DNA from: Candidatus Latescibacterota bacterium | GTDB taxonomy: Bacteria; Latescibacterota; UBA2968 | DNA: 64,000 bases | Assembly: GCA_965204375.1 (NCBI GenBank) | Contig: OZ241986.1 | Location: forward strand, 4,416,001-4,480,000 | Direction: 5' to 3' | Shown: piece by piece, positions 6,830 to 46,201 of the stretch | How the letters are laid out: every line of letters begins with the position of its first letter | How positions within the stretch are numbered: the first letter of the stretch is position 1 | Position numbers and translations under genes: made by a program | The notes under the pieces: model-generated | Databases searched by the model: none | What the model was told of the DNA's origin: nothing | The model's input: only the letters and a program-made list of their open reading frames with translations

Positions 6830-6877
6830 GGGCAGGTTTCGAGCGGGGTACAACTGCGATAGCAGTTCAACCTGCCC
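6830..6877. repeat. Intergenic inverted repeat (gggcaggtt...aacctgccc), REP-like
   Basis: 9-bp arms between atpF and atpH. Confidence 0.45.
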
Positions 6878-6935
6878 GTACAAAACAAGCGTTCAGCTAA
6901 TAGCTAATTGCTGGTAGCTAACAAAGGATTTCCCA

Positions 6936-7475
6936 GTGAGCCAATCCGCCGTTTCCATCCGATATACCAGCGCACTGATCGACGCCGCGCAAGACAGCGG
7001 AGTACTGGATCGGGTTGAAGCCGATGTACAGGCATTATTGGACCTATTGCACGCCTCGGAAGACCTGCGGGGATTTGTCGCAGACCCGATGATGCGATCT
7101 GAACAAAAACGCGCGGTATTGAACAATTTGCTCGCCGGAAAAATCGAGGACGTGACCCTCAGATTTTTGCTCTTACTGTGCGATAATCGCCGCGAACGCG
7201 TATTGCCCGAATTGTTATCGGACTTCCTATCCGTATTGGAAGACCGCCGCGGTCAGGCCACGGCGCAGGTGACGGTTGCTGCCCCCCTGTCCTCTGAACA
7301 GGAAACGCAATTGATCGCAAAACTCTCGACCTATTCTGGCAAGCAGGTGAGATTGGAAACCACAATAGACGAACAATTAAAAGCCGGGTTTGTGGTGCGG
7401 CTCGGTGACCGTGTATTTGATGGCACACTGGCGACGCAACTCAATCGGTTGCGACAGCGCCTCGTGTCTGATTAA
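6936..7475 (+). CDS. atpH: F1 subunit delta
   Basis: RYTSAL N-terminus, [14 protein letters not shown]-terminus and operon position. Confidence 0.93.
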
Positions 7476-14236: not shown

Positions 14237-15283
14237 TTAGTTTCTAAACTTTCTGACTATTGATTTGACTCTACCTGGAAAAAGGGCAGCATAAGAAGAA
14301 TCTGTCAAATCCAATGCTTGATCTAAATCTTTTATCTTTGGTTCGATTTTTGCCAACATATATCGTTCGTATATTTTCATCGCCGGATACCTTTGAAAAC
14401 CCTCTAATAACTCATCTTCCATCTCTGGTAATTCGGTCTGAACAAAGTGAAACAGGCCATTGTAACAGGGTATATGACCGAGTTCCGCAGTTCTGAATTG
14501 CTGCCCCAGAATGAAATCAATAATTTTACTGAATTTATTCCACGATGGATGATTGCGGAATAATTGATAGACCAGTACAGCCACCAGCGAGTTATTCATA
14601 ACGCCCCAGATAAATCTCGAAAAGTCAATATCGTAAGACAAACGTAGCCCAACTGAGGCAGAGCCGCGTACCCGCCATTCCATCTGATTGATATTTACGC
14701 CATGCATATTTGCGCCATGCATGTTGGCCATGATATATCCCGTCATCATTTCGCCGCCGCTCATTCGCAACCCAGTCATATCCCAAAAATGTGCTTGAAA
14801 ATTTTTAAAATTAGCTCCTGTTGCAACTGCTCCAGTAAAATTTGTGCCTGTTCCAGTTACACTATTAAAATTTGCATCCTTCAACCTTGCGGCGGTAAAA
14901 TCTGAGTAGTCGAGTGTTGCCCCTTCAAAATTGGCTCCGGTAAGATCTGCTTGAGCAAAGTTGAAGTGTGTTAAATCCTCACCTGAGAAATCCATCCCTC
15001 TCAAATCTGCTCCAACATAATACTTATTAGATTCATTGAGCAGATAGTCAGCAGACACTTCGCCGTCTGTTTCCTTTTCAATATAGTCGGCTAAATTCAT
15101 TGCCGTTCTGTCATAAAGCTTGTTCGCCTTTCCGTTGAGAATCCTGCTCAATGTTTGGCGACTGACGTCTGTTTCAGCCTCAATAACCTCTAATTTCAGC
15201 CAGCCATTTTTCCCATTTTTACTATTGCTATAAAGTTGTTTCAGATGTTTAGATATCCTATTAGCCACAACCTCATTAACCAT
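14237..15283 (-). CDS. XRE-type HTH plus pentapeptide-repeat protein
   Basis: DVSRQTLSRILNG HTH, then ADLRG/ADLTG/ANFEG pentapeptide repeats. Confidence 0.8.
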   Translation of the reverse strand: MVNEVVANRISKHLKQLYSNSKNGKNGWLKLEVIEAETDVSRQTLSRILNGKANKLYDRTAMNLADYIEKETDGEVSADYLLNESNKYYVGADLRGMDFSGEDLTHFNFAQADLTGANFEGATLDYSDFTAARLKDANFNSVTGTGTNFTGAVATGANFKNFQAHFWDMTGLRMSGGEMMTGYIMANMHGANMHGVNINQMEWRVRGSASVGLRLSYDIDFSRFIWGVMNNSLVAVLVYQLFRNHPSWNKFSKIIDFILGQQFRTAELGHIPCYNGLFHFVQTELPEMEDELLEGFQRYPAMKIYERYMLAKIEPKIKDLDQALDLTDSSYAALFPGRVKSIVRKFRN

Positions 15284-15592
15284 CGCGTCCCTCAACTGTG
15301 TGAATCGTGTGAAAAGAAATACTCGACAATGAGTATCAAAAAATTAAAATTATTCTTTAAGCCAACTTTTTTACGAGTTGGTGATACGGTCGGAGGCATA
15401 CTTTGCTTTGGACGGTGAAGTATGCCTCTACTTTCATTTCGCAAAATAAGCGACTATAAAATGTAATATAATGCTCCACAATTCAAGACAAAAATGTACC
15501 TATCCTATTTAGATCAAAACCCCGAGATGGTATGATGAGCACGCACGACGAACCACAGAGTAACAGGCATGTCCCTGCAAGTGTAAGCAGGG

Positions 15593-16028: not shown

Positions 16029-16147
16029 TCCCGCCACCCAAAATGTATCCGCAGATGGACGCAGATGGGGAAGGCGCAGCTATGAACTGGCGTGGGACGC
16101 AGCGTAGCTATACACCGTTTTGTACAGATGCACAGCGGAGAAAAAAG

Positions 16148-17536
16148 ATGGACAAAGAGAAAATCCTCATCATAGATGACGAGCCGGATATGTTGAGTGG
16201 TTGCCAAAAGTTTCTGGAGGAAGCGGAATACGCTGCTGTCGTGGCAGAATCAGGTGAGGATGGGATCGCGTTGTTCGAGACAGAAAACCCCGATCTGGTC
16301 ATTGTGGATTTGAAGATGCCCGGGATGGACGGGATGGCTGTGCTTCAAAGCATTATGGCACGCGATAGGGAGGCCGTTGTAATTGTCTTTACAGGATATG
16401 GAACCGTTGAGAGTGCAGTGAAAGCGATCAGAGCAGGCGCGTTCGACTTTGTTCAGAAACCATTTGATGTAGATGCATTTCTAATCGTGATAGAGCGGGC
16501 ACTGAAGTTGCGGCAGGTGAGGATGGAGAACAGTGCTTTGAAACAACTGTTGGAGACGCGGTTTCGGTTCGAGAACATCATCGGGCATAGTAAAGCGATC
16601 ACACAGGTATTTGATCTAATGCGAAAAATCAGCGACATAGATGCCAATGTCCTGATCACAGGAGAGAGCGGAACGGGAAAAGAATTGGTGGCGCAGTGTA
16701 TTCACGCCAATAGCAAGCGCAGCCATAAGCCGTTTGTGCCGCTCAACTGCGGGGGCCTGCCAGAGCCTCTCATTGAAAGTGAGATATTTGGTCATACAAA
16801 GGGGGCATTCACAGATGCGAAACAGAACCGCGTCGGGTTAATAGAACACGCTAAGGGTGGGACATTTTTTCTCGATGAAATCGGGGAATTGCCCATGCAC
16901 CTTCAGGTGAAATTCTTGCGCGTTTTGGAAGACCACAAAATTCGCAGGTTGGGAAGCAATGAGGAGATAGAAATCGACATCCGTCTCATCTCGGCGACCA
17001 ATCAGAATATTGAAGCGTTAATAAAAAAGGGCAGATTTCGAGAAGATTTATTTTATCGACTTAACACCTTTGAGATTCACTTACCGCCTCTCAGAGAACG
17101 GCAGGGAGATATTCAACTTCTTGCCATGCACTTTGTGAATCACTTTGCCGAGACCTCTGAAAAGGCGATTCAAGGTATTTCCACCGAGGCAATGGATGTG
17201 TTGTGCGACTATACCTGGCCTGGCAATGTGCGAGAATTGATGCATGTGATGGAGCGAGCTATTGCCCTATCAGATGCGGATGCGATCCAGATCGAGGATT
17301 TACCTGAAAATTTAATCGCTCAGACCGGAGATACCATTGTTTCTCCACAGACCGATTTGCCTTTCCAAGAAGCCAAAGACGCGGTGGTTGAGAAATTTGA
17401 GCGGACCTTTATTGACCGCCTCCTCAAAGCGCACAACGGCAATGTGTCCCGTGCAGCCAGACAGAATGGAATGAATCGGCACAGGCTGCAACGGTTAATC
17501 TCCAAATATGCAATAGATATATCTACTTACAGATAG
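16148..17536 (+). CDS. sigma54-dependent response regulator (REC-AAA+-Fis HTH), copy 1
   Basis: DLKMPGMDG, GESGTGKE, GAFTDA and WPGNVREL. Confidence 0.95.
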   Translation: MDKEKILIIDDEPDMLSGCQKFLEEAEYAAVVAESGEDGIALFETENPDLVIVDLKMPGMDGMAVLQSIMARDREAVVIVFTGYGTVESAVKAIRAGAFDFVQKPFDVDAFLIVIERALKLRQVRMENSALKQLLETRFRFENIIGHSKAITQVFDLMRKISDIDANVLITGESGTGKELVAQCIHANSKRSHKPFVPLNCGGLPEPLIESEIFGHTKGAFTDAKQNRVGLIEHAKGGTFFLDEIGELPMHLQVKFLRVLEDHKIRRLGSNEEIEIDIRLISATNQNIEALIKKGRFREDLFYRLNTFEIHLPPLRERQGDIQLLAMHFVNHFAETSEKAIQGISTEAMDVLCDYTWPGNVRELMHVMERAIALSDADAIQIEDLPENLIAQTGDTIVSPQTDLPFQEAKDAVVEKFERTFIDRLLKAHNGNVSRAARQNGMNRHRLQRLISKYAIDISTYR

Positions 17537-17663
17537 TGGTCAGCCCCTACCCATTCAGCCTTCAATCTTCAGTAGTCATTCCCTAATTTCACATATCCAT
17601 TCCCAATCTCCCGTATCCAGCCTCTCGCTTTTTAGCGGTCATGGTTGGTCAACGGACAGCCAC

Positions 17664-17709
17664 AAGTGCCACATTTATGTTCCAAAAGTGGAACATAAAT
17701 GTGGCACTT
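17664..17709. promoter_or_regulatory. Perfect 21-bp-arm palindrome, candidate upstream activator site
   Basis: aagtgccacatttatgttcca-aaag-tggaacataaatgtggcactt, ~105 bp upstream of the -24 element. Confidence 0.6.
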
Positions 17710-17813
17710 AATCCCTTTTACTCTTACAGCACTTTAAAATATAAAAGTTTTATCTACTTGTCTATCAAGCACTTGAGTGTCTTCAAGTACTTTTTTTATT
17801 CTGAACGAATTTA

Positions 17814-17829
17814 TGGCACGCATCTTGCT
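17814..17829 (+). promoter_or_regulatory. sigma54 -24/-12 promoter
   Basis: TGGCACGCATCTTGCT, exact GG-N10-GC spacing. Confidence 0.85.
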
Positions 17830-17882
17830 CTATAGCAATGTGCGAGACAATAACAACAATCAGATTTTTGATGAGGTGACTT

Positions 17883-18071
17883 ATGACTGCTCAAATAAAA
17901 ATAAAAAGACGCGATCATTTGGCTCATCTCTCCTTGCTCTATGCCATCTGGGGCGATGAAGCCCGATCTGAAGCCTTGCACACGATGATACGTAGAATGA
18001 GCCAGCAAAATAGAGAGATAGACCAGCAATCGTTATTGGCTGGTGAAGTGTGTTTCTATCCGGCAAAATAA
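17883..18071 (+). CDS. Conserved small protein (62 aa), first ORF after the sigma54 promoter
   Basis: GAGGTG RBS; homologous to 46257..46460. Confidence 0.7.
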   Translation: MTAQIKIKRRDHLAHLSLLYAIWGDEARSEALHTMIRRMSQQNREIDQQSLLAGEVCFYPAK

Positions 18072-18126
18072 GCATATATGGACAACAATAAAAATGTAAT
18101 ATCTACGCAATCCAGGGAGGTTTCTC

Positions 18127-19887
18127 ATGGCAAATTCAGAATTATATCGCGTATCGTCCTATACGATTTGTGTCAAGCTGCCTGAAGATCCAAATTACAC
18201 TTTGCTCGTTCACGGCTATACGGGCGCAATAGATAGAGTGAATAAAGAAGTCGCTCAGATGATCAAAAGCAAGGTTGTTCTCTCGGAAGATATGTTTGAT
18301 CAACTGCCTTGTTCAAAAGGGACGATTCATACTTTAATGAAGCGTGGCTATCTGACCAGTCGTTCTCCTGTGGAAGAACGAGAATACGTGCATAGCATGG
18401 CGAATTTTCTCCACCATACCTCAAGTCGAGGTGCCGCATCTTTCCTTTTCTTAGTGGCCTACGATTGCAACTTCCGCTGTCCCTATTGTTATGAAAATGA
18501 CATTTCATCTCATGGAAAGGGGTGGTCAAAACAGGTCTTTACAAAGGAATTGGTTGACCGCGCATATCAGGCTATGCTTGAAATCCAACCGAACAGAGCC
18601 ATACATAGCAAAAATATCACTTTGTATGGTGGAGAGCCTTTGTTAAAAAAAAATAAAGAGATTGTGCAGTATATCGTAGATGAAGGTTTGAAACACGGTT
18701 ACACTTTTTCTGCGATTACAAATGGATATGATCTTCACCATTTTACGGATTTATTAGGTCCCCAAAAAATCAGACGTCTCCAGATTACCTTAGATGGCGA
18801 AGAAGAAAATCACAATCTCAAGCGTCCACATTATCGTGCAGGAGATAGTTTTGATGCGATCATGAAAAATGTGGCACTTGCTCTGTCGCTTGATGTGCAA
18901 GTTTCAATGCGAATCAATACAGATTACGACAATGTGGATATTTTACCTGCATTATTTGATTTGTTCAAAGATAGAGGATTTACAGAGTATCCGAAATTTT
19001 CGGCCTATTCTGCATTGGTGCATCAGGTTGAAGAGAGCCTGTCCTGTAGTTCTACCATGTCAGGAAAAAAGACGCCAGGCAATTATGGCCAGACGACACC
19101 TCTGCTTTCTATTGAATCACCAGCATCAGATTTTGAACCCTCTGAGTCTGTTGCCTCTGTCATATCCTTTAAGGAGAGTAAGACTCAGAAACAAAAAACT
19201 TTTGATCATGAAGAATTTGAACTCCAAGCACAGTTGCACACTGCTTCTGAAATGCTCATAGATGAAGAACAATATATCAATGTGGAACAAGAAGAAAAAA
19301 TTTTCTCGAACTACCAAAACGGCACACGCCCAGTTGGTCTTCATGAACTCTCTCAAGAGATGGAGTCAAACCATCTCGAGAATCGAAAAATTCCTGTTAT
19401 GCCGAGAAGAGAGTTTACACGCAAATATTATCAATTTGCTAAAGAAAATCCTGACTTGATGCATCAAATTTCTTGCCAAGACTATGGCATTAGACAGAGT
19501 TTCAAACAGGCCCTTGATGGTAAAGGTCTGTTGAGTTTTAAACCCATCTTCTGCGGGGCGCAGAACCGTATGTTGATCCTCGATCCTTATGGAGATCTCT
19601 ATACATGTTGGGAAATGGTGGGTTTAGATCGGTATAAAGTTGGTAGCTATATCAATCAAGTTGAATTCAATGATGAACGTTTATCAGAATGGTATGATCG
19701 GAATATTTCCAATGTACCGTCTTGCAGTAAATGCAAATATGCATTCTTTTGTGGTGGAGGGTGTGCTGCACATGCATTTATAAAAAATAATGGAAATGTC
19801 AACACATCCTATTGTGATGAGTATCCCAGGATTTTCCATACAGTTGTGCCTGAGATATTTGAGGAGCAAAAACAAAAAACCTTATAG
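18127..19887 (+). CDS. Radical SAM/SPASM peptide maturase
   Basis: CNFRCPYC, YGGEPL and SPASM cysteines (FCGA...YTCWE...CSKCKYAFFCGGGC...YC); RRE-like N-terminus. Confidence 0.93.
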   Translation: MANSELYRVSSYTICVKLPEDPNYTLLVHGYTGAIDRVNKEVAQMIKSKVVLSEDMFDQLPCSKGTIHTLMKRGYLTSRSPVEEREYVHSMANFLHHTSSRGAASFLFLVAYDCNFRCPYCYENDISSHGKGWSKQVFTKELVDRAYQAMLEIQPNRAIHSKNITLYGGEPLLKKNKEIVQYIVDEGLKHGYTFSAITNGYDLHHFTDLLGPQKIRRLQITLDGEEENHNLKRPHYRAGDSFDAIMKNVALALSLDVQVSMRINTDYDNVDILPALFDLFKDRGFTEYPKFSAYSALVHQVEESLSCSSTMSGKKTPGNYGQTTPLLSIESPASDFEPSESVASVISFKESKTQKQKTFDHEEFELQAQLHTASEMLIDEEQYINVEQEEKIFSNYQNGTRPVGLHELSQEMESNHLENRKIPVMPRREFTRKYYQFAKENPDLMHQISCQDYGIRQSFKQALDGKGLLSFKPIFCGAQNRMLILDPYGDLYTCWEMVGLDRYKVGSYINQVEFNDERLSEWYDRNISNVPSCSKCKYAFFCGGGCAAHAFIKNNGNVNTSYCDEYPRIFHTVVPEIFEEQKQKTL

Positions 19888-19986
19888 TGTATATAAACTC
19901 TTAAGAGAAAGGAGACATTATATTTTGATGCTGATATAAACGAAGATGTCATCTCTGTTTAATTTTCAATCAAGGAGGGTAGTATC

Positions 19987-20235
19987 ATGTCTTCCCCAGT
20001 GTCTTCAGAAGCCGATCTCAAAGCGCACATAGCGTCATACCCTGAACTTTACGAGGATCTGGCTGTTGATGTTCTTGAAGAACGTTTGGAAATGTGGTGT
20101 GTTTGCGATAGTTTGGAGTGCATTTGTGATGAGTTTGAGTGCATTTGTGATGAGTTTGAGTGTATTTGTGATGATCTTTGTATTGATTGTTGGACTGATT
20201 TTTGTGTGATTGATCTGTGTGATATTGATTCTTAG
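19987..20235 (+). CDS. Cys/Asp/Glu-rich RiPP precursor peptide
   Basis: AAGGAGGG RBS; Cys-free 36-aa leader ending LEERLEM; 46-aa core with 12 Cys; directly after the rSAM gene. Confidence 0.85.
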   Translation: MSSPVSSEADLKAHIASYPELYEDLAVDVLEERLEMWCVCDSLECICDEFECICDEFECICDDLCIDCWTDFCVIDLCDIDS

Positions 20236-20634
20236 AAGATCTTTAGAACCCCAACTGTCTTTACACAATGAATCTTCGTGGTCAAGGCCACTCATATTGT
20301 TTTGCAAAAATATAGGTGGTCTCGATCATTCTTAATACTTTTTTGTCGCGCTTGGGGATTCACCAAAGAATTTTTAGAATTGCGATAAAACGAATAACTT
20401 ATACTAATCGTATGAATTAACTTTGCATGACATTTTAGGGTATTTTCGAGAACGATGGCTTGACTGTATTTTGATACGCAGAATAGAATAGGCATGCAAA
20501 TCTGATTACAAATGCAAGATTTCTATTTCTGATTAGTATTACTTATTTAATGATTATATTGCTCGCCAAAGCGTGCTACAACTCGTCTGGCTTCTCTAAT
20601 CATTGATCGCGTAAAATATTCAGGAGGCATACTG

Positions 20635-21528
20635 ATGGTCATTCGCATTTCAAACTTGGCAAAAACATATCGACGCGGTGATACGCCAGTACTAGACGAT
20701 GTCACTTTGAGCATCCCACACGGCACATTTGGTCTGTTGGGACCCAATGGCGCGGGAAAAACTACGCTAATCAAAATCCTGTCGACCCAAATGGACGCAT
20801 CGAGCGGCAACGTTACCATGGATGATTTCGATTTGGTCCAAAACCGCGCAGAAATTCGGCATCGCATTGGATATTTGCCTCAGCATTTTGGCACCTATCC
20901 CCAACTCACCGCTTGGGAATTTCTCGATTATATGGGCATTTTGGGCGGTATCCACAACAGGACAGAGCGTCTAAATCGCGTAGAGCAAGCTCTAAACGAA
21001 GTCGGGTTATACGATGCACGCAAGTGGCACACGGGCACGTTTTCCGGTGGCATGGTGCGGCGTCTTGGCATTGCACAGGCCATTTTGACCGATCCAGAGT
21101 TTCTCATTGTCGATGAACCCACCGTGGGGCTTGATCCGGAAGAACGCATCCGGTTTCGAAGTATTTTGGGACGCTTGAGCAGCGATCGCGCCATTTTGAT
21201 CTCCACGCATATTGTAGGTGATATTTCGAGCACTTGCAAGGATATCGCAATTTTGAATCGTGGACAACTGGTCTTTCGCGGCTCCCCATCAGACCTGATT
21301 TCAAAGGCGGATGGCAAGACGTGGCAAATACAGGTTGATGAGCCCCACTTTGAAAAGCTGTCGCGTGTGTTTCATGTAGTGACGGTCAATGTTGAAGGGG
21401 ATCGCATGAGTGTGCGAATGGTGGGCGATGGCGATCCTCTCGCTGATGCCGAAGCAGTCTCGCCCAATCTGGAAGATGCGTATCTCTATTTTATGAGTGG
21501 CGACATTACTGATGAAATCGCATCGTGA
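20635..21528 (+). CDS. ABC transporter ATP-binding protein
   Basis: GPNGAGKTT, FSGGM and VDEPT. Confidence 0.95.
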   Translation: MVIRISNLAKTYRRGDTPVLDDVTLSIPHGTFGLLGPNGAGKTTLIKILSTQMDASSGNVTMDDFDLVQNRAEIRHRIGYLPQHFGTYPQLTAWEFLDYMGILGGIHNRTERLNRVEQALNEVGLYDARKWHTGTFSGGMVRRLGIAQAILTDPEFLIVDEPTVGLDPEERIRFRSILGRLSSDRAILISTHIVGDISSTCKDIAILNRGQLVFRGSPSDLISKADGKTWQIQVDEPHFEKLSRVFHVVTVNVEGDRMSVRMVGDGDPLADAEAVSPNLEDAYLYFMSGDITDEIAS

Positions 21529-21620
21529 AGATAAAAAAGAAGAAACTTTCTTATTGATCACCAGCCTTGGGCGGTGTAGGTGGTCCTTTTAAGTCTTGTC
21601 CTTGGAAAAGGAGTAATACC

Positions 21621-24600
21621 ATGTTATCTGCTCTTCATAACATACTCGGTGTTGCACGTTACGAGTGCAAAATGCTTTTGAGAACCACAAAATTTCGCAT
21701 TTTGGGTGGATTGACAGTGTGTATTTACGTTTGCTTGGGCATTAATTTTGCCTTGGGATTTTGGAATAAAGCACACAAAGGACTTGAAGGATACGAGTCT
21801 TATGTTCTGTTTCTCGTATACACTACCTTTCAGGCCCTTGTCATTCCATTTCTTGCAGGATCTTTTAGAACTGCTGACGAAAATGCCCATATTTATGAAG
21901 TGGTTGCTGGGCGTCCTATTTCGACAGCAGCACTCGTTGTAGGTAAGTATTTGGGCACTGTCAGTGCGTTTTTCTTTTTTAGTCTTAGTGTTCTGATTTT
22001 GGCCTTGAGCATCCAAGCAGCAGAGATCAGCATGGCGGATAATCCATTTACTATAGAACCTTATCTGTTATACCTTTTGCTCTTGAACTTTCCCACTCTG
22101 ATTTTTTTATCTTCTCTTACATTTTTTCTGGGGGTCTTGCTACGTCGGCCAATAGCTGCTGCCTTGATTGTAACTACATATTCGTTCGCTGCCATATTAT
22201 TCTTCTCAGGTAGTCAATATTTCAACGTGGGATTTGACTTTCTTGGTTTAGATGACTACATGGGTTATTCGGATCTGATGGGTATAGGGAATATTACACA
22301 AGTGGGTTTGCAACGCCTGTTTTACGTTTTGCTCGGCATTGGCTTTTTGGGATTGGCGATTGATCGATATCCCCGTCTTGCACACTCCATGAACGCGCAA
22401 TGGTTTGGTCGCGGATGCGCTCTAACCGGTTTTGGATTGACCACAGGTCTTTACTTTTTTTTTCATGCGGATGTGCAAAACCGGCAGACATATCGCCAGT
22501 CATTGCTCGCGCAACAGGAAGCCGTTGCACATATTCCCGTAACAGAAATCACTCATTATGACTTGGCAGTGACACTTCTGGGCAAAGATCTGCTCTCAGC
22601 CTCTGGCAAGATCATCTTAAAAAATAATCTTGAAGTACCTCTTGATACACTGATTCTTTCACTCAATCCCGGACTGAAAATTCAAAGCCTGATGCAGGAC
22701 AATGGTAGCAACATTGAATGGGATCGGACGGGAAGTGTGATCCGCGTCATGCCAGATGCTCCTTTGCTATCGGATCAAGAACTCGGTCTAAAACTAAATT
22801 ATGCAGGGGATATTGACACAGATGGTTTTGATCTCAAACGAGAAAAAGGCAAATCTAGGTTTTTGCCAGGGCGGATGGGCATGGGATTTTTAACGGCGTG
22901 GATTCGCGATAATTCCATCTTTTTGCCTCCACGCAGCCGATGGTATCCGGTAACGGGCGTTGATTATGGCTACAAGCATGCACGTCCGGCCTCTTTTTCA
23001 ACAGCAAACTTGCACATCACCTTCCCGCAAGGTCTCGAAATCATTACCCAAGGGCAGATAGGCAAGACCGATACCCTCGGCACACAAGTGATCCGCCAAT
23101 GGGTTGTTGAAAATCCCGTACCCGTCCTGTCTCTGAACGCGGGTGTGTATTGCGTGTATCGTGCCACCATTCACGACATCGAATGTGCCCTTTACGTGCA
23201 TCCATCACATTTGCGCTTGATCCGCTTTTTTGAAGATGCTGAAGAAGAGGTTGTGCGTGCGCTTGGGCAAATCGTGGATATGATGGAACAGGAATCAGGT
23301 ATGAAATATCCCTACCCCAATCTCTCTTTAGTGGAAATTCCGTTCCATATTCAGTGGTATTACGAAGGCTGGGAAGAAAAGGGGGGCCTGACGCTACCGG
23401 GCGTGTTGATGATTGAAGAAAAGGTACTTGCAAGGCAGAGTTTTACCCACATTTATAAGCCTTATCAACAGCAATTGAGTGTCAACCGAGAACCTAAAAA
23501 TCTAAAAAAAGACCTTCTGGTACGCGCTGTTTTAGAAACCTTTTTTGCAGAAGAAAGTGCGAATAGTGGGCTTTTTCGTAGCCCTGTTTTTCAACTCTGG
23601 GCTTATGACAAGAATTTTGTGGGCGATCATTATGCTCTGCTCAAAAAGGGCATGCCCCTATACCTTCAGAGTAATTTGAGAAACGATATGGCATCTGCTT
23701 TTTTTTCACGCCGCCGACAGCGTAGTGGGGTTAGCAGAGGGTCAAGCAAGGATTGGAATAGATTGACCGCCAAGATGCAACGGAAGTCGTTTGCCGATTT
23801 AGACCCCGAACAAGAGGCTAAACTCTATCGCCAAGTGCTTGACGTAAAGGGGCCGGGACTCTTTGAGATGATGGCGTCCTTTTTAGGTGAAGAAACCTTC
23901 CGCACCCTCATATCTGACATCAACCAGAATTATAAATATAAGGACATTGATTTTTCGACCTTTGAACGTGCCGCTGTGGGCTATACAGAAGATGAAGATC
24001 GCTTGAGACTACAGCGCTTGGTCAAAGATTGGATATTTAGCACAGAAATCCCAGGCTATACCCTGACAAGTGTAAAAGCCTTAAAGATAGACGATGGCTC
24101 TGGGATATTGGCCTATCAATTGATTGTGCGGATCAAGAACAGCGAACCCGGTAGGGGCTATGTGCAAATTACTGCCTTAAGCGAAAATGATGAGGCGATA
24201 AAAGGCGTCGAGATTGAAAGTGGACAGGAAATTGAAGTTTCGATGGTGCTGTGGGAGCAGCCCTTGCGGGTGATCATTGAACCCTTTTTTGCACGCAACC
24301 GCCAACCGCTCATATCCCCTGTGCGTGTTCCTGAACAGGTTACAAAGGGAGCTCCCATTGCCTATCTTAAAGATGTGACAGGAGAGGAGGATATGACTCA
24401 TGCGGATACGGATCCTATTGAAATTATTGTAGATAATGATGATAAAGGATTTTCAATGCCCATTCACCGCGTGACACGCTTCTCGCGTCCCGGCCTCAAA
24501 GGGGGTAACTGGCGCGAGCGTAGCCTGCCAGTAGCTTATGGACGATATGCAAAAAACTATCGGCAGAAGAAACCGGGCGATGGCGCACAACCTGCTGTGT

Positions 24601-24935
24601 GGACCGCACAAATTCCCAGAGATGGTGAGTTTGATGTGAGCTTCTATTTTCCCGACCAGGCAACAGCTAAGCGCGAGGGTATTGCACCAGCCTTTACCCT
24701 TACTGTTTTTCACGCGGGTAAGGTCGATACCCTTAAAATGGAGCGCGACCTTATGAAAGCGGGCTGGAATCACCTAGGGCGATACAAATTTGTCAATAGG
24801 GAAGAGGCTGTGGTCGAATTGTCTGACCGCGCAGAGGGGGTCCTATATGCTGATGCTGTGCGCTGGCGTTTTGTGGATAAACTCATTCCTCAACAGGCTT
24901 TCTTCGATCCACAAAACCCCGGTGCCCATAGGTAA
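21621..24935 (+). CDS. ABC-2 permease fused to an M1-aminopeptidase-like region (no HEXXH) and a golvesin-like C-terminal domain
   Basis: N-terminal TMs (VVGKYLG); M1-like beta domain (HYDLAVTL, WYP, YPYPNLSLVE); C-terminal GWNHLGRY...ADAVRW. Confidence 0.7.
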   Translation: MLSALHNILGVARYECKMLLRTTKFRILGGLTVCIYVCLGINFALGFWNKAHKGLEGYESYVLFLVYTTFQALVIPFLAGSFRTADENAHIYEVVAGRPISTAALVVGKYLGTVSAFFFFSLSVLILALSIQAAEISMADNPFTIEPYLLYLLLLNFPTLIFLSSLTFFLGVLLRRPIAAALIVTTYSFAAILFFSGSQYFNVGFDFLGLDDYMGYSDLMGIGNITQVGLQRLFYVLLGIGFLGLAIDRYPRLAHSMNAQWFGRGCALTGFGLTTGLYFFFHADVQNRQTYRQSLLAQQEAVAHIPVTEITHYDLAVTLLGKDLLSASGKIILKNNLEVPLDTLILSLNPGLKIQSLMQDNGSNIEWDRTGSVIRVMPDAPLLSDQELGLKLNYAGDIDTDGFDLKREKGKSRFLPGRMGMGFLTAWIRDNSIFLPPRSRWYPVTGVDYGYKHARPASFSTANLHITFPQGLEIITQGQIGKTDTLGTQVIRQWVVENPVPVLSLNAGVYCVYRATIHDIECALYVHPSHLRLIRFFEDAEEEVVRALGQIVDMMEQESGMKYPYPNLSLVEIPFHIQWYYEGWEEKGGLTLPGVLMIEEKVLARQSFTHIYKPYQQQLSVNREPKNLKKDLLVRAVLETFFAEESANSGLFRSPVFQLWAYDKNFVGDHYALLKKGMPLYLQSNLRNDMASAFFSRRRQRSGVSRGSSKDWNRLTAKMQRKSFADLDPEQEAKLYRQVLDVKGPGLFEMMASFLGEETFRTLISDINQNYKYKDIDFSTFERAAVGYTEDEDRLRLQRLVKDWIFSTEIPGYTLTSVKALKIDDGSGILAYQLIVRIKNSEPGRGYVQITALSENDEAIKGVEIESGQEIEVSMVLWEQPLRVIIEPFFARNRQPLISPVRVPEQVTKGAPIAYLKDVTGEEDMTHADTDPIEIIVDNDDKGFSMPIHRVTRFSRPGLKGGNWRERSLPVAYGRYAKNYRQKKPGDGAQPAVWTAQIPRDGEFDVSFYFPDQATAKREGIAPAFTLTVFHAGKVDTLKMERDLMKAGWNHLGRYKFVNREEAVVELSDRAEGVLYADAVRWRFVDKLIPQQAFFDPQNPGAHR

Positions 24936-30033: not shown

Positions 30034-31224
30034 ATGAATATCTGCTTGATTACCTACCAGTATCCACCATACCCAGGAGGAGTTGGAAGTGCAATGTATC
30101 GAATTGCCAAAAATTTGGCAAAACAGGGTGTCAATATCCACATTATCGCGCCAGGTCCTCATCAATTAAGGGATAAAATCTCACCTGTCATAGAAGACGG
30201 TGTGACAGTACATCGAACATTTTCAATATTATCAGATTACCATGCTGATCCGCATAGTTTACAAGTACTTGGCGAATATATTGTAAAACTCCATCAAAAA
30301 CAGAGTTTTGACTTGATCCATGCAGCTTTTCTTATGCCACCTGGGTTCTTAGGTGCAATCGTGGCTACAGAGATTGAGTGTCCCCTTATCGTCAGTATTA
30401 GGGGCAATGATTGGGAGGTTTTGCGATATAGCATCCAACACTTGGCGAATCTAAGGTGGGTATTAGAAAGAGCCGATTATGTAACATCAGTATCTCATGA
30501 ACTCATGGAAAAGATGCGCCGAATGGTAAGAATCAAAGCAGGAAAAGTCCTTTCCAATGTGTTTGATGCGTCAATATTTGATGCACGTTTACTTTCAGAA
30601 ATAACAGAAGAGCATAATAATAGACTGCAGGTACTTACGGAAACCTTTTTTCGGATGAAATCAGAAGGTAGATCAGTCATCGGAACTGCTGGATTTCTGC
30701 GGCCTAAAAAGGGGTTTCACATTCTTTTACGAGCATTTGGAGGGATTGTTAAAGCTTATCCCAATACTTGTTTGCTCGTTGTAGGACAGTTTGCACAAGA
30801 ATCCTACAAAAGAGATATGTTGCAGCAGATCAGTGACCTGGGTATCAAAAGGCAAGTTTTATTTACAGGTTATATTCCACACCGAGAAGTATTAGCGTGG
30901 ATGAGAGAGATGGATATTTTTGCATTCCCTTCGCTTCATGAAGGTTCACCAAATGCACTGTTGGAGGCGATGGGTTTTGGACTTCCTATCGTGGCTTCCC
31001 AAATCGGTGGTATTATCGATATAGTTGAAGATAATAGGGATTGCCTTATTGTTCCCGGCGGTGACGCCGGTAGGTTATCCCAAAAATTGCAACTATTACT
31101 TGAAGATACAGAACTCAGAAAAAGACTTGGTAAGGCCGCAAAACATAAAGTGGAAAACCAATTTTCTCCAACTCAAGAAACAGAACAGTGGCTTGACATC
31201 TATCACCGTATATTGAATAACTGA
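30034..31224 (+). CDS. GT4 glycosyltransferase
   Basis: YPPYPGG, KKGF and HEGSPNALLEAMG. Confidence 0.92.
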   Translation: MNICLITYQYPPYPGGVGSAMYRIAKNLAKQGVNIHIIAPGPHQLRDKISPVIEDGVTVHRTFSILSDYHADPHSLQVLGEYIVKLHQKQSFDLIHAAFLMPPGFLGAIVATEIECPLIVSIRGNDWEVLRYSIQHLANLRWVLERADYVTSVSHELMEKMRRMVRIKAGKVLSNVFDASIFDARLLSEITEEHNNRLQVLTETFFRMKSEGRSVIGTAGFLRPKKGFHILLRAFGGIVKAYPNTCLLVVGQFAQESYKRDMLQQISDLGIKRQVLFTGYIPHREVLAWMREMDIFAFPSLHEGSPNALLEAMGFGLPIVASQIGGIIDIVEDNRDCLIVPGGDAGRLSQKLQLLLEDTELRKRLGKAAKHKVENQFSPTQETEQWLDIYHRILNN

Positions 31225-46185: not shown

Positions 46186-46201
46186 TGGCACAAATTTTGC
46201 T
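46186..46201 (+). promoter_or_regulatory. sigma54 -24/-12 promoter
   Basis: TGGCACAAATTTTGCT, GG-N10-GC. Confidence 0.85.

Follow-up and report, generated by a model that had tools for sequence, protein, structure and literature searches.

In ranthipeptides, a Cys sulfur is joined through a thioether to a carbon other than the α-carbon of the acceptor residue, and in sactipeptides to the α-carbon. To our knowledge, few thioether-forming radical S-adenosylmethionine (rSAM) systems have known sequence-to-ring rules. The subject of this report is a Cys-rich precursor, of the kind that gives ribosomally made peptides with post-translational modifications (RiPPs), and the rSAM/SPASM maturase encoded next to it in a Candidatus Latescibacterota bacterium (GenBank assembly GCA_965204375.1, one contig of 6.34 Mb). 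Both genes lie in a stretch of 64,000 nt (contig OZ241986.1, positions 4,416,001 to 4,480,000 of the forward strand), hereafter the window, and positions are counted from its first letter. Among the described enzymes, PapB forms six Cys-to-Asp links to the β-carbon in C-x3-D motifs and reportedly needs the acceptor carboxylate, a carboxamide being left unprocessed (PMC8172795, PMC12373016, PMC9413430). The streptococcal NxxcB forms a β-thioether to Asn and reportedly tolerates Asp, Gln and Ala (PMC9389541); hence a mixed range of acceptors is chemically feasible.

The precursor gene of the window and its parts are listed below, L007 being a syntenic locus of the same family.

19987 to 20235, + strand: precursor peptide gene, recognised by its open reading frame (ORF) and translation, 21 relatives, and the leader ratio of nonsynonymous to synonymous differences (pN/pS)
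19972 to 19978, + strand: Shine-Dalgarno sequence AAGGAGG, 8 nt 5' of the ATG, kept in L007
19987 to 20094, + strand: leader, aa 1–36, with no Cys, a recognition-type motif ...SYPELYEDLAVDVLEERLEM and 19 invariant columns
20095 to 20232, + strand: core, aa 37–82, a hypervariable cassette with conserved flanks
20102 to 20174, + strand: in-frame 21-bp tandem repeat encoding the heptad C-I-C-D-E-F-E (Tandem Repeats Finder, 3.5 copies, 92% matches, score 116)
20218 to 20232, + strand: C-terminal unit C-D-I-D-S, which fits the family end motif C-x-x-[D/N/H]-[S/T]-end
20278 to 20291, + strand: terminator-like hairpin 3' of the precursor gene, of five pairs only and weak as evidence, its sequence kept in L007

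As read from the sequence and its translation, the ORF at 19987–20235 encodes a peptide of 82 aa plus the stop codon. An earlier note on this DNA, made from the letters alone, had described the same frame and product, and the translation agreed with it exactly. The composition that it gave was also reproduced, namely a leader of 36 aa without Cys and a core with 12 Cys, 15 Asp or Glu and no basic residue; the core is 46 aa long and has neither Lys, Arg nor His. A recount returned its seven C-x-x-D motifs, which start at core positions 2, 9, 16, 23, 32, 37 and 42 and include four of the form C-x-C-D, and its six C-x3-[D/E] spacings, which start at core positions 4, 9, 11, 16, 18 and 23. An Rfam scan of positions 17400–20700 gave no match at the gathering score.

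Searched by word index, 5.8 billion proteins gave 19 relatives of the precursor, and a profile search raised the number to 21. No relative bears a functional name, and one carries the label 'hypothetical protein' only. A third match to the peptide in its own genome (E 0.336) was judged to be noise. The leader/core layout recurs in the 21 other peptides: the leader has its 19 invariant columns across 20 peptides, ending in ...YPELYEDL....LE.RLEM, and the C-terminal halves are unalignable. No Pfam or NCBIfam model matches the leader.

Over 30 leader codons of seven genes, pooled from 21 gene pairs that are not independent of one another, pS was 0.45 and pN 0.067. The resulting ratio of 0.15 is that of purifying selection and indicates that this frame is translated, the point on which the earlier note had made its proposal depend. 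In comparison with L007, whose cassette is flanked by genes 83–89% identical to those of the window, DNA identity is high along the leader, collapses straight after the Met-Trp-Cys codons and returns past the stop codon. The core is an exchangeable cassette; the leader/core boundary that had been placed after ...LEERLEM is supported, protein conservation ending at the same point. With its conserved leader, variable core and adjacent modifying enzyme, the gene has the features that define a RiPP precursor, and it is a genuine one.

The relation between Cys and its downstream neighbours was analysed in 24 distinct cores (20 from aligned relatives and 4 read from loci), which contain 173 Cys residues, against 2000 shuffles. 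The third residue after Cys (position +3) is Asp, Asn, Glu, Gln or His in 72% of cases as compared with 32% in the shuffled cores (z 11.7). The most frequent residues there are Asp (68 of 173), Asn (30), His (14) and Glu (11), and Phe and Tyr come next. The preference holds for 77% of the 125 lone Cys residues and for the first Cys in 23 of the 24 C-x-C motifs; the second Cys of these motifs has such a partner in only 25%. In lone units, the position just before the partner is occupied by Ile, Val or Thr, and in C-x-C units by Cys. The core of P0010, for example, is short, with four units in 24 aa. In nine of the 24 cores all Cys residues fall within C-x-x-[D/N/H/E/Q] units; a C-x-x-[D/N/H] unit opens 19 cores and, followed by Ser or Thr, closes 20. 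One peptide found later, P0279, obeys the +3 rule by eye; together with the fragment P0280 it stands outside these statistics.

The family unit is therefore C-x-x-[D/N/H], and the heptad of the window peptide consists of one unit, C-I-C-D, and a spacer, E-F-E. The earlier note had also drawn in the C-x3-D motifs of PapB. A C-x3-[D/E] register is not conserved in the family: at position +4 the same residues occur in 28% of cases as compared with 32% after shuffling (z -1.1), and the maturase scores 118.7 bits with the PapB model, for which the cut-off is 340. As +4 is at background throughout the family, the six C-x3-[D/E] spacings of the window peptide seem merely to follow from the composition of its heptad, C-I-C-D-E-F-E.

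The maturase gene precedes the precursor gene.

18127 to 19887, + strand: rSAM/SPASM maturase, 586 aa, matched by Pfam Radical_SAM and Fer4_12 and by the SPASM model TIGR04085, ending 99 nt before the precursor gene

The protein scores 60.3 bits with TIGR04085 (cut-off 27) and 49.7 bits with Pfam Radical_SAM (cut-off 29.5). The Cys residues of its CX3CX2C motif (C114, C118 and C121) are invariant, and so, or almost so, are those of the seven-Cys SPASM motif, C476-x12-G-x4-C494, C533-x2-C536-x5-C542-x3-C546 and C563. These two motifs, the second providing for two auxiliary clusters, define the rSAM/SPASM superfamily, and the enzyme is an rSAM/SPASM peptide maturase. Among the NCBIfam models, the five that match it best all describe maturases of Cys-rich peptides or of thioethers: CefB (NF038107; 129.1 bits, cut-off 600), PapB (NF047865), geopeptide (118 bits, cut-off 400), TIGR04463 (113 bits, cut-off 525) and SCIFF (TIGR03974; 93.5 bits, cut-off 425). 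All five scores are below the cut-offs, and the enzyme is thus a member of neither the PapB nor the CefB nor the SCIFF family.

Among proteins of solved structure, CteB is the closest in sequence (E 2.3e-18), with a Foldseek E of 4e-12. An AlphaFold2 (AF2) model of the maturase could be aligned with CteB by VIA-align over 402 of 440 residues (model residues 10–581) with Z 23.8, a root-mean-square deviation of 4.1 and 16% identity. The pairing of the precursor with an rSAM/SPASM enzyme, as assumed in the earlier note, is thus supported, the nearest curated and structural relatives of the enzyme being maturases of Cys-rich peptides or thioethers. Mean predicted local distance difference test (pLDDT) of the model is 71, with values below 50 at residues 300–378 and 400–423. 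Residues 10–96, which have pLDDT 75–92, can be aligned with the N-terminal domain found in CteB and TigE, with no Pfam match to RRE or PqqD. As the alignment with CteB begins at residue 10, the maturase may share the N-terminal peptide-binding domain. A predicted complex of maturase residues 1–300 with precursor residues 1–46, calculated from alignment inputs, had a score of 0.00 against a mark of 0.32 in a run without controls, and carries no weight for or against binding. N-terminal to the SPASM domain lies a partly disordered insert of 130–170 aa that holds residues invariant in the relatives.

The maturase gene is situated ~100 nt 5' of a precursor gene in six cassettes: that of the window, a paralogous one in the same genome (L002/L096), and L004, L005, L006 and L007; in L004, one maturase gene is followed by two precursor genes. 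Among the 31 genomes of the taxonomic family, the maturase was found in four, which are the same four that have an intact precursor. Phylum-wide, five of 168 genomes matched, all from one genus; the system is rare and patchy. These data leave little doubt that the cassette is real and that the two products are related as enzyme and substrate.

The maturases of the family are 77–86% conserved. A HMMER search of 1.84 billion representatives returned one cluster at 84% identity and all others at 52% or below. The named relatives, at 43–50% identity, are entries called 'radical SAM protein' from Bacteroidota, such as Elizabethkingia, Saprospiraceae and Rikenella.

Two members of the family appear under the names of other phyla: L006, a contig of 4.4 kb titled 'Gammaproteobacteria bacterium', holds a cassette whose enzyme is 81% identical to that of the window, and the family peptide P0011 is filed under 'Gemmatimonadetes bacterium'. 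For these short contigs of metagenome-assembled genomes, misbinning seems likelier than transfer. In genome G082 (locus L008, G082:C1:3191189-3191275), which has no maturase gene, the first 29 residues of the leader run into unrelated sequence; the locus is a decayed remnant of the cassette.

The 21-bp tandem repeat that the earlier note had called near-perfect was recovered by Tandem Repeats Finder, and its two central units, 20119–20139 and 20140–20160, are identical. An 18-bp in-frame repeat (3.3 copies) in the core of L004 encodes C-G-C-[D/N]-x-A units, and a 12-bp in-frame repeat (3.7 copies, 100% identity) in the core of the paralogue L002 encodes DDGS units. The core of L007, the other of the four loci examined, has no tandem repeat. 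In-frame repeats in three of four loci make repeat expansion a recurrent mode of core change. The earlier note had suggested that the number of ring units could change in this way, which the recurrence of in-frame repeats supports; the part of the claim that concerns copy number is not matched by any variant seen in assembled contigs. Over positions 19300–20900, contigs from four of five runs showed no 21-bp insertion or deletion, and assembled contigs drop rare variants. No listed data set containing the stretch is recorded as RNA. Of the contigs compared at the repeat, those of X1 and X2, probably the source of the sequence, include the exact locus and the paralogous cassette; X4, which comes from another study, gave three short identical contigs, one of which spans 20117–20267. 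L004 has another repeat, of 108 bp in 2.3 copies, in the interval that separates its two precursor genes (6848–7094 of that locus), and the translated consensus of this repeat resembles what we take to be Sel1-type repeats.

In the best explanation, the two genes constitute a RiPP cassette in the order maturase, then precursor (A) gene. The near-invariant leader is most likely bound by a putative N-terminal peptide-binding domain of the maturase. This enzyme most likely then links each Cys sulfur to a carbon atom of the +3 residue, giving what would be a row of thioether mini-rings of four residues each, C-x-[I/V/T/C]-[D/N/H], with seven such units in the window peptide. Judged from sequence, thioether rings in the +3 register have a probability of about 60%. 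The β-carbon is favoured as the acceptor because Asp, Asn and His, as well as Phe and Tyr, all carry a β-CH2 group beside an sp2 carbon; attachment to the α-carbon is also possible. For the five further Cys residues of the window peptide, free thiols, disulfides, metal ligation and a second ring to the following Asp or Glu are all conceivable. The heptad C-I-C-D-E-F-E would be a ring unit with its spacer, multiplied by in-frame duplication of 21 bp. Binding of cations or of a mineral surface by the acidic product is a guess.

A broader proposal can be formulated, in which the family is a new class where one maturase uses Asp, Asn and His at +3 to build ladders of mini-rings, crossing or nested second bridges are added in C-x-C-[D/N/E]-[D/E] units, the copy number of in-frame repeats sets the number of rings, so that the scaffold evolves by slippage, and the product is a rigid polyanion with affinity for cations or mineral surfaces and not an antibiotic. 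Taken as a whole, it is doubtful.

Several points weigh against thioether rings at +3. Five of the 12 Cys residues of the window peptide, namely the inner Cys of the four C-x-C-D motifs and core Cys29, lack a polar partner at that position. In peptides of the wider enzyme clade (44–51% identity, on Bacteroidota-like contigs), enrichment at +3 is not significant (16 of 46, z 1.7); the register thus belongs to the peptides of this subfamily and cannot be ascribed with confidence to the enzyme. Of 47 members sampled from the enzyme group, none comes near a curated NCBIfam family; the best E value, 1.8e-48, would correspond to far fewer bits than the cut-offs of 340–600. With the whole group below all curated cut-offs, function cannot be transferred by membership. 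Three other enzymes, ChlB, the sulfatase maturase anSME and TigE, equal CteB in fold score, for ChlB and anSME in the catalytic part. Epimerisation and the formation of C-C and C-O links are likewise within the range of SPASM enzymes. Cys, Asp and His are classic metal ligands. Finally, as PapB reportedly needs a carboxylate, Asn and His are a misfit as acceptors under the PapB rule, and a different acceptor rule would be needed.

Some of these points would also fit another radical chemistry, such as C-C or C-O links, epimerisation or a transformation of Cys, with C-x-x-[D/N/H] serving as a recognition or structural motif. Besides the scores below every curated cut-off and the fold neighbours of equal rank, to which the epimerase EpeE can be added at a lower rank, a point in its favour is the conserved insert of the maturase, with extra invariant residues (C307, C450 and a QYI..E block) absent from the characterised enzymes. 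However, the substrates are defined by Cys, which makes up 18% of core residues, the five best sequence models are all for maturases of Cys-rich peptides, and a fixed spacing of donor and acceptor is typical of thioether RiPPs. Such a chemistry is considered unlikely.

A PapB-like ranthipeptide, with most of the 12 Cys residues linked to Asp or Glu in nested or interlocked C-x3-[D/E] and C-x2-D rings, was essentially the proposal of the earlier note. The six C-x3-[D/E] spacings fit it, PapB is the second-best hidden Markov model for the maturase, and PapB is described as accepting minimal substrates C-Xn-D with n = 0–6 and forming Cys-Asp and Cys-Glu links (PMC9413430). In addition, the second Cys of the C-x-C motifs is followed by an acid or amide at +1 in 23 of 24 cases and at +2 in 15 of 24, so that a second bridge per unit has candidate partners: two donors and two acceptors would allow links from the first Cys to +4 and from the third residue to +1 (nested), or from the first to +3 and from the third to +2 (crossing). 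On the other hand, +4 is not enriched in the family, and four residues after the second Cys of C-x-C stands mostly not an acid but the next Cys (13 of 24). The score with the PapB model is about a third of the cut-off, and Asn or His at the conserved position would not suit an enzyme that depends on a carboxylate (PMC12373016). This chemistry is quite unlikely for the family, and an interlocking ladder, which could form only through the inner Cys of C-x-C-[D/N/E]-[D/E] units, is no more probable.

A polyanion that binds metal or mineral through Cys, Asp and His, with cross-links few, absent or serving only to pre-organise the peptide, would account for the composition of the cores (23% Asp or Glu, 18% Cys and 0.8% Lys or Arg) and for the Asp, His and Glu at +3, which are metal ligands. 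P0011 and the L002 paralogue, with only 2–3 Cys residues, end in poly-Asp or (DDGS)n. But the residue that ranks second at +3 is Asn, which is a poor ligand, and an unmodified metallopeptide requires neither a conserved leader nor an rSAM/SPASM enzyme that strictly co-occurs with it. As the whole explanation, metal binding is very unlikely; as a downstream function, it is compatible with thioether rings. That the frame arose by chance in repetitive DNA, where GAT- and TGT-rich repeats keep several frames open, or that the real gene is the antisense ORF of 90 aa at 20035–20307 (- strand), can be dismissed in view of purifying selection on the leader, the Shine-Dalgarno sequence with its ATG, the 21 homologues of the same architecture and the fixed place after the maturase gene.

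Upstream of the cassette, elements were found that bear on its expression.

16043 to 17536, + strand: NtrC-type σ54-dependent response regulator (REC, AAA+ and HTH_8; Pfam and NCBIfam), syntenic in L007 (89%) and L005
17664 to 17709: perfect inverted repeat with 20-bp arms, ~130 bp 5' of the -24/-12 element and largely kept in L007
17814 to 17829, + strand: σ54-type -24/-12 promoter, perfect TGGCAC-N5-TTGCT, ~300 nt 5' of the maturase gene

Expression of the cassette thus probably starts at a σ54 promoter under control of the adjacent NtrC-type regulator. A perfect TGGCAC-N5-TTGCT occurs twice in the 64 kb, at 17814–17829 and at 46186–46201 (+ strand). Of the former, L007 and L004 each have a copy that differs by one change, and rpoN is present in the genome. 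The inverted repeat would be a candidate enhancer site of the adjacent activator or the terminator of its gene. This regulatory scheme is weakened by two observations. Sites with up to two mismatches number 40 in the window, which is not above the 35.7 expected by chance, so that weight can be given only to the perfect match and to its being conserved. In the paralogous cassette the regulator is a REC-AraC protein, which is not of the σ54 type; hence, the mode of regulation varies within the family. An ORF of 62 aa at 17883–18071 (+ strand), between the promoter and the maturase gene, was rejected as part of the core system, being present only in the window and L007 (76%); it belongs to no family. 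On the 5' side of the regulator gene is a gene for a pentapeptide-repeat protein with an N-terminal helix-turn-helix-like region (14237–15295, - strand), which is 83% conserved in L007.

Further genes of the window accompany the cassette at one or more of the other loci, among them the paralogous cluster.

20635 to 21528, + strand: ATP-binding cassette (ABC) transporter ATPase of the DrrA/ABC-2 type, adjoining the cassette in the window and L007 only
21567 to 24935, + strand: fusion protein of 1122 aa with ABC-2 membrane, M1-peptidase-like and Golvesin_C parts (Pfam), close to the cassette of the window and to those of L007 and L004
27619 to 28695, + strand: all-helical protein of 358 aa with no Pfam or NCBIfam match, with homologues (75–79% identical) next to the cassettes of L096 and L005
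28716 to 30023, + strand: intramembrane HExxH metalloprotease, daptide/YydH-like, with an HELGH motif and 125.7 bits with NF041824 (cut-off 300)
30034 to 31224, + strand: GT4 glycosyltransferase, 396 aa (Pfam), 80% identical to the copy in L096
G000:C1:3588000-3607000, outside the window: paralogous cluster L096 of the same genome

The cluster L096 includes genes for the REC-AraC regulator, a maturase 83% identical to that of the window, a DUF5686/CarboxypepD_reg protein, a homologue of the 358-aa protein, an HExxH protease, a methyltransferase and a GT4 enzyme. Its 83-aa precursor contains just 3 Cys and ends in (DDGS)n. Despite different gene orders, the 358-aa protein and the HExxH protease accompany the cassette in the window, L096 and L005, and the GT4 enzyme in two of these three. 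The protease, which is 80% identical in L096 and 81% in L005, is related to the NF041824 family, though by the curated rule not a member of it. It is a likely candidate for the leader peptidase. The M1-like region of the 1122-aa fusion was considered for the same role and rejected for lack of HExxH, the sequence having no match to HE..H or H...H. This fusion, of unusual architecture, is 66–74% conserved in L004 and L007. The ABC ATPase may possibly act in export or immunity, with variable linkage. For the 358-aa protein, an Atlas lead to clusters resembling class-1 isoprenoid enzymes was only at rank 17 with a score of 0.93, and the AF2 model, built on a three-row alignment, has a mean pLDDT of 47. 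Some 260 bp between the precursor hairpin and the ABC ATPase gene (20490–20750) are present in the window and missing from the otherwise syntenic L007.

The literature search, which covered few subscription journals, returned no description of this leader or of any thioether family based on C-x-x-[D/N/H], nor one of FlmE/OhkG. The only related report found gives automatic 'ranthipeptide' cluster labels for Candidatus Latescibacterota (PMC12993501). Thousands of such clusters are already known from mining, and the 3,421 predicted sacti- and ranthipeptide clusters of PMC10288494 may include members of the family. The cassette represents an undescribed, genus-restricted branch of the Cys-rich RiPPs modified by rSAM/SPASM enzymes, and the present data would describe, at the level of the peptide, a RiPP of Candidatus Latescibacterota. 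With at least 24 cores behind one near-fixed leader and one enzyme, they offer a natural series with a simple +3 rule, in which cores were diversified by in-frame tandem duplication within a RiPP gene three times independently.

The branch is best placed by comparison with its relatives. One of these is the Bacteroidota-type clade, which also includes Balneolaceae: its enzymes are 43–55% identical to the maturase over the full length, including the insert, and of the 15 closest metagenome loci, 11 have a short precursor after the enzyme gene. The leaders of the two groups share an ...LEeRLE[T/M] block (hhalign probability 80%, E 1.4e-5, 19 columns). Those of the clade differ in that DPL-x-x-GG-L comes next, with a spacer between it and a short tail rich in Cys. 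The curated peptide families match neither these peptides nor the precursor family, apart from weak matches of CefA (NF038108) in four of 20 relatives (best E 0.0016); the window peptide itself is not matched by it at E up to 10. CefA/CefB, the Cys-every-fifth system, resembles the family in that CefB is the best-scoring maturase model and that Cys is followed by Cys at +5 in 51 of 153 cases. In the literature covered, 'Cys-every-fifth' and 'NF038107' do not occur and 'CefB' occurs, among the papers listed, only as unrelated acronyms, so that no CefB chemistry was found to transfer.

CteB, the SCIFF maturase of thermocellin (PDB 5WGG/5WHY), resembles the maturase in fold, with the region of its N-terminal peptide-binding domain and the SPASM domain within the alignment, but acts on another precursor and reportedly links Cys to the γ-carbon of Thr (PMC8172795). 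NxxcA/NxxcB provides a precedent for mixed Asp and Asn acceptors two residues from the donor, with the acceptor preceding Cys there and following it here. No NxxcB model was among the best 25 of 63 NCBIfam matches of the maturase, a direct sequence comparison not having been made. The system of PapA and PapB, which gives the ranthipeptide freyrasin, shares with the family an rSAM/SPASM enzyme, an acidic precursor with a leader, and repeated Cys-to-acid motifs in which the acceptor is C-terminal to the donor. The repeated Cys-X3-Asp/Glu pattern of the freyrasin type is not conserved in the family, the six such spacings in the window peptide standing against a background level of +4. The family differs further from PapA/PapB in its +3 spacing in place of +4, in Asn and His as the presumed acceptors and in the insert of 130–170 aa in the enzyme. 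If thioether rings in the +3 register are indeed formed, peptide engineering would gain from the family a stapling unit that is compact and can be repeated, and the family would extend chemistry of the ranthipeptide type to a shorter ring and a broader range of acceptors than those of PapB.

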